From: Escherichia coli
Lineage (GTDB): Bacteria > Pseudomonadota > Gammaproteobacteria > Enterobacterales > Enterobacteriaceae
DNA length: 64,000 bases
NCBI RefSeq assembly: GCF_003334385.1
Contig: NZ_QOWN01000012.1
Direction: 5' to 3' (one strand)
The position numbers were made by a program, and so were the translations under genes. Below, piece by piece: positions 45,777-45,878 of this stretch. Every line of letters begins with the position of its first letter. Within the stretch, counting starts at the first letter, position 1. Below the pieces are notes generated by a model that saw only the letters and a list, made by a program, of their open reading frames with translations, had not been told where the DNA came from and did no database searches.

Positions 45777-45878
45777 CCCCTCGCCCCTTTGGGGAGAGGG
45801 TTAGGGTGAGGGGAACAGGCCGGCACTGGCGCGAATATTTACCCTCACCCCGGCCCTCTCCCTGAAAGGGCGAGGGGG
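45777..45878. repeat. GC-rich nested palindromic element (family unassigned), copy B, about 100 bp
   Basis: Left arm cccctcgcccctttggggagagggttagggtgagggg and right arm accctcaccccggccctctccctgaaagggcgaggggg are near-perfect reverse complements around a 30-bp centre. Confidence 0.45.

Follow-up and report, generated by a model that had tools for sequence, protein, structure and literature searches.

In the 64,000-nucleotide stretch of Escherichia coli DNA analysed here (contig NZ_QOWN01000012.1 of assembly GCF_003334385.1, called the window below), the genes gcvT-gcvH-gcvP are followed by ygfF-bglA, and the spacer between gcvP and ygfF contains a long GC-rich palindrome at which RefSeq has no annotation. 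The palindrome starts 36 nt past the hairpin of the gcvP terminator and ends 86 nt before the start codon of ygfF (45964). Its G+C content is 68%, compared with 52% for the 64-kb window. Two small ORFs on the minus strand (45718-45894 and 45801-45926) both run through the repeat; they are annotated in none of the RefSeq records, and we rejected them as genes. A shorter relative lies on the other side of gcvP. The features of the region, in order along the window, are:

42716..42787, degenerate BoxC pair in the gcvH-gcvP spacer: CCTCTTC-GGGAGAGG-AGGGTGAGG / CCTCACCCT-CTCTCTT-GGAGAGAGG
42824..45697 (+), gcvP, glycine decarboxylase, the upstream neighbour; an ORF of 957 amino acids, annotated in identical K-12 records
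45720..45741 (+), intrinsic terminator of gcvP: AAAGGCGC-TTCG-GCGCCTTT and more T; a perfect 8-bp inverted repeat
45744..45944, insertion of about 200 nt bearing the BoxC pair, boundaries approximate; found in K-12-type E. coli and not in the Citrobacter gcvP-ygfF spacer
45747..45777 (+), conserved 5' flank of type A copies: GATGACAA...AAAAGTGCTCAGACAGTC; alignments of one pair to another begin at GATGACAA
45778..45813 (+), BoxC / TMECO type A "mm" copy (TMECO #11, HPG1 #33): C-block 45778-45787, loop TTT, G-block 1 45791-45800, loop TTA 45801-45803, G-block 2 45804-45813
45814..45840, spacer in the middle of the pair: AACAGGCCGGCACTGGCGCGAATATTT; it has homologues in the pairs at fepB-entC and alx-sstT
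45841..45876 (-), BoxC / TMECO type B "mm" copy (TMECO #10, HPG2 #32); on the plus strand CCCTCACCC 45842-45850, CGG 45851-45853, CCCTCTCCC 45854-45862, TGAAA, GGGCGAGGG 45868-45876
45877..45897 (+), outer flank conserved in type B copies: GGAAAAGCGTGCCAACAT; it reads ...GCAC.GTTTTCC ahead of CCCTC on the B strand
45964..46707 (+), ygfF, SDR oxidoreductase, the downstream neighbour

Geometry and folding of the palindrome

A repeat search places the two arms at 45777-45815 and 45839-45877; they are 39 nt each, 82% complementary and 23 nt apart. A preliminary description, made from the sequence alone, had reported an inverted repeat at 45777-45878, and its position is borne out, while the unpaired centre measures 23-27 nt instead of the 30 bp given there. 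The left half of 45777-45878 reads CCCCTCGCCCC-TTT-GGGGAGAGGG-TTA-GGGTGAGGGG, followed by a short centre, and the right half mirrors it as CCCTCACCCC-GG-CCCTCTCCC-TGAAA-GGGCGAGGGG. The three mirrored modules per arm that had been described are real, and all of them are variants of a single word of 9-10 nt, CCCTCNCCC or its complement GGGNGAGGG, arranged in each arm as a C-rich block and then two G-rich blocks. When the module pattern of the preliminary description is searched with up to 2 mismatches, the window contains 4 matches (0.07 expected), which fall only in the palindrome and at 42728-42773.

Self-folding of both strands, which had been proposed as a check, gives one long hairpin each time. 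For the 116-nt stretch 45770-45885 the RNA fold has an energy of -76.6 kcal/mol on the plus strand and -73.7 kcal/mol on the minus strand, against a mean of about -47 kcal/mol for dinucleotide-preserving shuffles (n = 200). None of the 200 shuffles is as stable (z -7.4 on both strands). With DNA parameters the z-scores of the palindrome are -5.8 and -5.7 for the two strands. In models of Watson-Crick pairing only, single arms fold no better than shuffled sequences (z -1.9 and -0.6), a result that speaks neither for nor against a triplex or G4. The arms are also the only two canonical G-quadruplex (G4) motifs in the 64-kb window (45791-45813 on the plus strand and 45842-45862 on the minus strand) under a rule of four tracts of at least three G and loops of 1-7 nt; each has a C-rich block ahead of it.

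Does the palindrome act on the transcripts around it? The predicted hairpin is very stable and lies between the stop codon of gcvP and the start codon of ygfF, and both properties would suit an RNA-level cis element, which could serve the gcvTHP mRNA as a backup terminator, stabilise its 3' end, or control ygfF as a structured 5' leader. We consider this improbable. The true gcvP terminator, a canonical intrinsic one at 45720-45741, is a separate hairpin upstream of the palindrome, and this terminator hairpin is also found after gcvP in Citrobacter and Salmonella. The palindrome fails as an intrinsic terminator in its own right, its stem being followed by GGAAAAGCG on the plus strand and ACTGTCTGAGC on the minus strand, with no T-run on either. 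It also fails as a member of an Rfam 15 family: the only hits, all below threshold, score 21-33 bits against thresholds of 40-105 and are eukaryotic microRNA precursors and similar generic long hairpins (E-value search of 41000-47500), and a search of the whole window at gathering thresholds finds 6S, SIB, naRNA4 and ES036 elsewhere and none at the palindrome. Furthermore, one goat strain of E. coli, like Citrobacter, Enterobacter kobei and Cronobacter, expresses these two genes in the absence of the palindrome, one arm is broken by a 6-nt deletion in a common allele, copies of the family show no orientation bias relative to genes, and the published promoter and terminator assays, as cited in PMC4666352, were negative. 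A transcript-stabilising structure, one of the roles suggested in the preliminary description, is likewise without support in a palindrome that stands after a canonical terminator, has no T-run behind it and is missing from about 44% of E. coli genomes and from related genera. Our own promoter and terminator scan of 45600-46050 returned no match; it also missed the evident gcvP terminator, so it is uninformative about a promoter of ygfF.

The palindrome had been set apart from the REP and ERIC repeats, and rightly so, as the gcvP-ygfF spacer contains the core of neither. The REP/BIME core GCC(G/T)GATG...C(C/T)GGCCTAC is absent from 45698-45963 (19 core matches, in both orientations, occur elsewhere in the window). 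The central ERIC/IRU core GTGAATCCCCAGGAGC is absent from the spacer as well; the window has one copy, near 20510.

The BoxC family and its repeat unit

The palindrome is a convergent (head-to-head) pair of BoxC elements, one of type A and one of type B. It is already catalogued at exactly these coordinates and is therefore a rediscovery, not a new element. The window is K-12 DNA, and its 116-nt stretch is 100% identical to MG1655 and to many other strains. The consensus CCCTCNCCC-N3-6-GGGNGAGGG-N3-GGGNGAGGG, published under the name TMECO (Holder et al. 2015, PMC4666352), has 2 exact matches in the 64-kb window, at 45778-45812 on the plus strand and 45842-45876 on the minus strand, and none in 100 shuffles. 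With the gcvP stop codon as anchor, the arms convert to MG1655 positions 3046087-3046052 and 3045989-3046024, and these coordinates and sequences are identical to those of TMECO #11 and #10 in Table 1 of PMC4666352, where #11 is given as type A with one mismatched triplet and #10 as type B with one mismatch. Both arms were also listed as conserved G-quadruplex motifs located between ygfF and gcvP, HPG1 #33 and HPG2 #32 (Kaplan et al. 2016, PMC5100583). According to PMC4666352, TMECO is the same as BoxC, a repeat known since the 1990s that was described again in 2000 under the name PIT element, and K-12 has five inverted pairs, each consisting of a type A copy (second loop TTA) and a type B copy (second loop CCG). 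The gcvP-ygfF pair follows this pairing rule, with TTA in the left arm and CCG in the right, as do the other K-12 pairs.

The preliminary description did not recognise that the family already had a name or that this very copy had been listed. The name PIT reportedly goes back to Hoyne and Maher in 2000/2002. In an earlier survey of stem-loop repeat families, BoxC appears as a known family of E. coli, at 22-32 copies.

To these we add a census of our own, for which 17 further K-12 loci were fetched and scanned with the TMECO consensus. K-12 contains 23 BoxC copies at 18 loci, all intergenic (15 of type A and 8 of type B). Of 5426 complete E. coli genomes, 5409 have relatives; the matches, nearly all of them chromosomal, fall in a median of 17 places per genome. 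The palindrome is thus multi-copy, and the minor intergenic repeat family to which it had been provisionally assigned is BoxC.

The similarity among copies extends past the arms. Type A copies at unrelated loci have in common a 5' flank of about 20-30 nt, with the consensus cAAAAAcG.GC.CGgACGGTC (information content, 15 copies), and also share 3' GAAcAG..C.GCAC. A TTTTCT/TTTTCC motif lies ahead of all type B copies (8/8). The pairs at gcvP-ygfF, fepB-entC, alx-sstT and hrpB-mrcB align with one another over 150-177 nt at 80-87% identity, a homology that includes the central spacer in the first three, and the homologous unit in our window runs from about 45747 to about 45897. The repeated unit is about 150 nt long (arms, shared spacer and a flank of about 20-30 nt on each side) and reaches beyond the published core of 34-37 nt.

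This larger unit bears on how the repeat spread. The pair with its flanks (about 150-200 nt) might be a complete non-autonomous, MITE-like element that is, or once was, copied into new intergenic positions by an enzyme acting in trans, and the solo copies would then be half-elements. Such an origin is compatible with the instability reading given below; we think it unlikely, yet it has several observations on its side. One is the 80-87% identity of pairs at four K-12 loci, spacer and flanks included; another is the type A 5' flank common to unrelated loci. Plasmid matches from many genera (368 of 72,556 records, in Klebsiella, Azospirillum, Sinorhizobium, Aeromonas and others) and convergent pairs with a spacer of about 30 nt in a Methylomirabilota MAG also argue for it. 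However, the family is essentially absent from phage genomes (matches in 3 of 50,697 records), the BoxC and TMECO studies consulted name no partner transposase, and a comparison of 56 genomes put most copies at fixed homologous loci (PMC4666352).

Among the matches listed for species-representative genomes, Mitsuaria chitosanitabida has more than 100 copies of the consensus and the Methylomirabilota MAG at least 13, the convergent pairs being among them; Candidatus Contendobacter and an unclassified MAG match the consensus as well. These matches show occurrence and are not a taxonomic census. In the distant phyla among them, loops and flanks vary around unchanged words CCCTCNCCC and GGGNGAGGG; the identity of these words is partly circular because the search required them. 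Conserved words in changing surroundings are the pattern expected of a sequence-specific reader, and by analogy with the binding of gyrase, IHF and Pol I to REP/BIME, the palindrome might be a specific protein-binding or nucleoid-organising site. We regard this as highly improbable: apart from the circularity just mentioned, the studies of the motif consulted report no binding protein for BoxC, TMECO or HPG, and the palindrome is dispensable at gcvP-ygfF. The preliminary description had considered a protein-binding site too, and we find nothing in its favour, the reporter work cited in PMC4666352 being negative and about 44% of E. coli genomes, like related genera, lacking the palindrome.

The two spacers in other strains and genera

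The K-12-type gcvP-ygfF spacer is present in 3026 of 5426 E. coli genomes. The others, about 44%, lack the pair-bearing spacer and match only to the end of the gcvP terminator. We opened two of them, CFT073 and one O157:H7 strain. In both, bglA comes immediately after gcvP, with neither the BoxC pair nor ygfF between them, and the 165-nt spacer contains a REP-like hairpin. Homology to the window ends at about 45742-45743, which is the basis for the left boundary of the insertion, and this break falls at the outer edge of the segment that bears BoxC. In one goat E. coli strain ygfF is kept, and the pair is replaced by REP elements between two copies of the terminator hairpin.

Outside E. coli, the order gcvP-ygfF-bglA is found in Citrobacter, Enterobacter kobei and Cronobacter, where the gcvP-ygfF spacer measures 61-168 nt and has no BoxC; in Citrobacter, 61 nt take the sequence from the terminator to the ribosome-binding region of ygfF. 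Salmonella has a different gene after gcvP. The gene order in the first three genera indicates that ygfF is ancestral at this position. From the comparison of strains and genera together it follows that the pair sits in a segment of about 200 nt (approximately 45744-45944) gained in the E. coli lineage, and that the state in CFT073 and O157:H7 is a deletion or a replacement. The BoxC pair is dispensable at the gcvP-ygfF locus.

The sequence at 42716-42787, in the gcvH-gcvP spacer, had been noticed as a shorter relative of the palindrome, and this observation holds. It does not match the strict TMECO consensus. It has the same six-module mirror layout, with modules of 7-9 nt, and folds into three small hairpins (z -4.35). 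E. kobei has an intact A+B pair in its gcvH-gcvP spacer, CCCTCTCCC-TCC-GGGAGAGGG-CAG-GGGTGAGGG ... CCTCACCC-TAA-CCCTCTCCC-GAG-GGGAGAGGG, which is collinear with 42716-42787 and lies directly upstream of the conserved gcvP leader ATTCACTGCACGTTTCAGGAACCATCGC. At the same site Salmonella and Citrobacter have REP elements, and Cronobacter has other GC-rich palindromes. Because of the six-module layout and the intact E. kobei pair at the same site, the sequence at 42716-42787 is a decayed BoxC pair; the sequences do not distinguish between the insertion seen in E. kobei and a separate one. This degenerate copy is fixed in E. coli (5426 of 5426 genomes, at least 96.8% identity over a 401-nt query), which illustrates that not every copy is unstable.

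Elsewhere, BoxC pairs occur in a variety of altered alleles. At gcvP-ygfF, one common allele has lost 6 nt (AGGGTT) by slippage within the type A arm, and in ATCC 8739 the C-block carries a G-to-A change, accompanied by a 1-nt deletion; neither allele is compensated on the opposite arm. At alx-sstT, one allele has a 75-nt deletion exactly between two CCCTCTCCC modules, and at hrpB-mrcB, one allele has a 64-nt deletion exactly between two GGGAGAGGG modules; a simple hairpin remains in both cases. Another hrpB-mrcB allele lacks the whole pair. In O157:H7, the fepB-entC allele is without a clean block of 186 nt (pair and flanks), with TAA at both junctions in a global alignment, and the adk-hemH allele is a replacement. 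Holder et al. described a "palindrome effect" and raised local variability around TMECO sites (PMC4666352). The alleles described here reproduce this effect and point to slippage or recombination among the six self-similar modules of a pair. In addition, published MutL-bound replication-error regions are enriched for the G4 set of Kaplan et al. (Z = 10.6), about half of which is BoxC. The link between the repeat and instability is correlative; it may simply be that spacers prone to vary are those in which repeats can land.

Several of these alleles bear on the MITE-like origin as well. The clean 186-nt absence at fepB-entC, with TAA at both junctions, and the E. kobei pair at the site of the decayed E. 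coli gcvH-gcvP copy, where Salmonella and Citrobacter have REPs, are in line with it. On the other hand, the alleles compared show no consistent target-site duplication, and most of the "empty" alleles are not clean excisions; they are replacements or carry internal deletions. A more specific version, which we put forward as rather speculative, is that full-length BoxC may be a MITE-like palindrome of about 150-200 nt (A, spacer and B with flanks) that inserts just downstream of terminators and is mobilised by a putative enzyme recognising the CCCTCNCCC/GGGNGAGGG fold. If true, this would explain the occurrence of the same words and the convergent geometry in Enterobacteriaceae, Burkholderiales, Contendobacter and the Methylomirabilota MAG, and such a unit would have left behind, as remnants, the solo copies and the decayed copy between gcvH and gcvP.

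Interpretation and comparison with known repeats

The structural behaviour of the family has been investigated in vitro. The isolated G-rich strand forms a very stable intrastrand triplex of the purine type (Tm 70-82 C), as shown by CD and NMR for oligonucleotides of types A, B, A mm and B mm (PMC4666352), and the circular-dichroism signature of family oligonucleotides changes between G4 and hairpin depending on K+ versus Mg2+ or Li+ (PMC5100583). In both studies the duplex wins when the complementary strand is present. In vivo, DMS footprinting showed no triplex protection (PMC4666352). The same paper reports no effect of these repeats on replication, finds that the genes beside the copies share no function, distance or orientation, and cites earlier reporter work in which no promoter or terminator activity was seen. 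Our search of the literature on TMECO after 2015 found no functional follow-up.

These properties have led to the proposal of a switch between G-quadruplex, hairpin and duplex (or triplex) forms that depends on ions or chaperones and tunes the transcription of the neighbouring genes (PMC5100583). At our locus it could draw on the two arms, the only canonical G4 motifs in the 64-kb window, on the ion-dependent G4/hairpin signatures and on the thermal stability of the triplex. It is nevertheless very unlikely to operate here, given that the duplex prevails over the folded forms, that DMS revealed no protection in vivo, that the neighbouring genes have no common function, distance or orientation and that the palindrome is dispensable at gcvP-ygfF. 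More generally, an RNA element, a G4 switch and a protein site are all disfavoured by the true terminator upstream, the missing T-run, the negative published assays and the dispensability of the pair.

The reading we prefer, with a probability of about 0.78, is that the palindrome is a selfish or neutral, structure-prone BoxC pair that has no dedicated function for gcvP or ygfF and destabilises its own locus. When the DNA becomes transiently single-stranded during replication or repair, the modules could mis-pair, and the arms might then fold as a hairpin, cruciform, triplex or G4. Folding and mis-pairing would promote slippage deletions and mark the edges of larger rearrangements. Local genome instability would be the main effect of the pair, which presumably persists as a selfish or neutral repeat. 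Sequence analysis alone cannot exclude a role, and the core words are kept in very distant bacteria, which is not obviously expected of a purely neutral repeat. This persistence is the main uncertainty; it leaves room for a recognising enzyme (MITE-like spread) or for some other function.

Nothing suggests that the palindrome regulates gcvP or ygfF, and it matters little for the window as a whole. The BoxC label is useful all the same: the repeat is unannotated in RefSeq and yields spurious ORFs and microRNA-like hits, and naming it prevents over-interpretation. We know of no established function or spreading mechanism for BoxC after 30 years. The present analysis offers three handles on these questions, namely a unit larger than the published core, decay by deletion from module to module, and a position at the edge of the presence/absence polymorphism of ygfF.

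How does the pair compare with other systems? Fragile sites that form H-DNA, cruciforms or G4 resemble BoxC in their predicted behaviour: the DNA takes on non-B folds once single-stranded, stalls polymerases in vitro and loses sequence between short direct repeats. They represent a general mechanism and not a family; for BoxC, the folding demonstrated is in vitro. ERIC/IRU and MITE-like enterobacterial repeats are similar to the BoxC pair in being about 130-150 nt long, in forming a long imperfect palindrome, and in their intergenic location and patchy distribution across strains; the arms of BoxC are built of internally triplicated words and ERIC is not.

REP/BIME elements (PU) are, like BoxC, short GC-rich imperfect palindromes that are intergenic, multi-copy and often situated just after genes. 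The two even appear interchangeable at the same spacers: a site with BoxC in E. coli and E. kobei is occupied by REPs in Salmonella and Citrobacter, and in the goat E. coli strain REPs replace the gcvP-ygfF BoxC pair. The sequences are unrelated, however. REP elements have known partners (the RAYT transposase, gyrase and IHF) and known mRNA-stabilising effects, and neither has been reported for BoxC.

HPG1 and HPG2 (PMC5100583) are the same sequences viewed as G4 motifs; the paper proposes a regulatory switch, and the gcvP-ygfF locus gives regulation no support. The closest system is BoxC/PIT/TMECO itself, with which the palindrome agrees in sequence, MG1655 coordinates, the inverted pair of A (TTA) and B (CCG), intergenic site and copy number. 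The core is no different from that already published; what is added here is the unit of about 150 nt and its insertion in the E. coli lineage, which has been lost together with ygfF in CFT073 and O157:H7.

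Strain variation around gcvP

Among E. coli strains, ygfF and the BoxC pair of the gcvP-ygfF spacer are jointly present or absent (window 45744-46770). The match ends at the gcvP terminator in approximately 2400 of 5426 E. coli genomes. In CFT073 and one O157:H7 strain (loci L020 and L021), bglA directly follows gcvP, and the final bglA codons of both are also unlike those of K-12. The annotation of E. coli ATCC 8739 lists ygfF as a pseudogene with a frameshift (L149 404-540), which fits the dispensability of ygfF in E. coli. The goat strain R32_14_1F keeps ygfF, while REP/BIME-type sequences replace the BoxC pair (L022 1639-1871). 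The gcvP terminator hairpin, AAAGGCGCTTCGGCGCCTTT, occurs there in two copies, one on each side of these sequences, and this looks like a duplication made by the insertion.

The spacer between gcvH and gcvP, within the gcvTHP operon, is also a repeat site:

42716-42787 of the window, degenerate BoxC pair with six modules
4891-5014 of L152 (Enterobacter kobei), intact type A + type B BoxC pair at the equivalent position

The degenerate pair is fixed in E. coli (5426 of 5426 genomes). In Salmonella and Citrobacter this position is taken by REP elements, and in Cronobacter by GC-rich palindromes of other kinds. Several unrelated repeat families have occupied one and the same position in this spacer.

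G-quadruplex motifs, arm pairing and other features of the window

In the whole 64-kb window, canonical G-quadruplex motifs (four tracts of at least three G, loops of 1-7 nt) number just two, and both lie in the BoxC pair of the gcvP-ygfF spacer:

45791-45813, + strand, left motif
45842-45862, - strand, right motif

The left motif includes GGGTTAGGG, the human telomere repeat unit. When only Watson-Crick and wobble pairs are counted, the C-block of the type A arm (45776-45815, +) pairs with the second G-block with one G-T wobble; pairing with the adjacent first G-block would carry a G-A mismatch. The preference for the second G-block means that the common variant with one mismatched triplet does not favour the hairpin of the triplex model (Holder et al. 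2015). Two mechanical open reading frames run through the palindrome; RefSeq annotates neither, and the repeat has probably produced them spuriously:

45718-45894, - strand, 58 amino acids
45801-45926, - strand, 41 amino acids

Elsewhere in the window there is one ERIC/IRU copy (approximately 20440-20600, core GTGAATCCCCAGGAGC at 20510), and 19 REP core motifs are dispersed across it. Rfam matches at gathering level are:

21787-21829, - strand, ES036 sRNA
34900-35050, - strand, SIB antitoxin RNA
35699-35882, - strand, 6S RNA (ssrS)
49393-49470, - strand, naRNA4, REP-derived and nucleoid-associated

BoxC on mobile elements and in distant bacteria

The BoxC motif has been published as absent from mobile elements. 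This statement is qualified by two copies in the cryptic prophage CP4-6 of K-12 (MG1655 282101-282136 and 289246-289279; L007 and L008) and by matches in 368 plasmid records from many genera.

Among the matches listed, very distant bacteria, namely a Methylomirabilota MAG and Mitsuaria, also carry the same three-block consensus as families with many copies. The MAG has these convergent pairs:

1551-1651 of L024
1031-1130 of L029
985-1086 of L030

Among the matches listed, the MAG pairs share a spacer of approximately 30 nt and common outer flanks. E. coli BoxC pairs have the same geometry, convergent with a spacer of approximately 30 nt. The listed Mitsuaria pairs (L031-L137) are mostly divergent, with 80-230 nt between copies.
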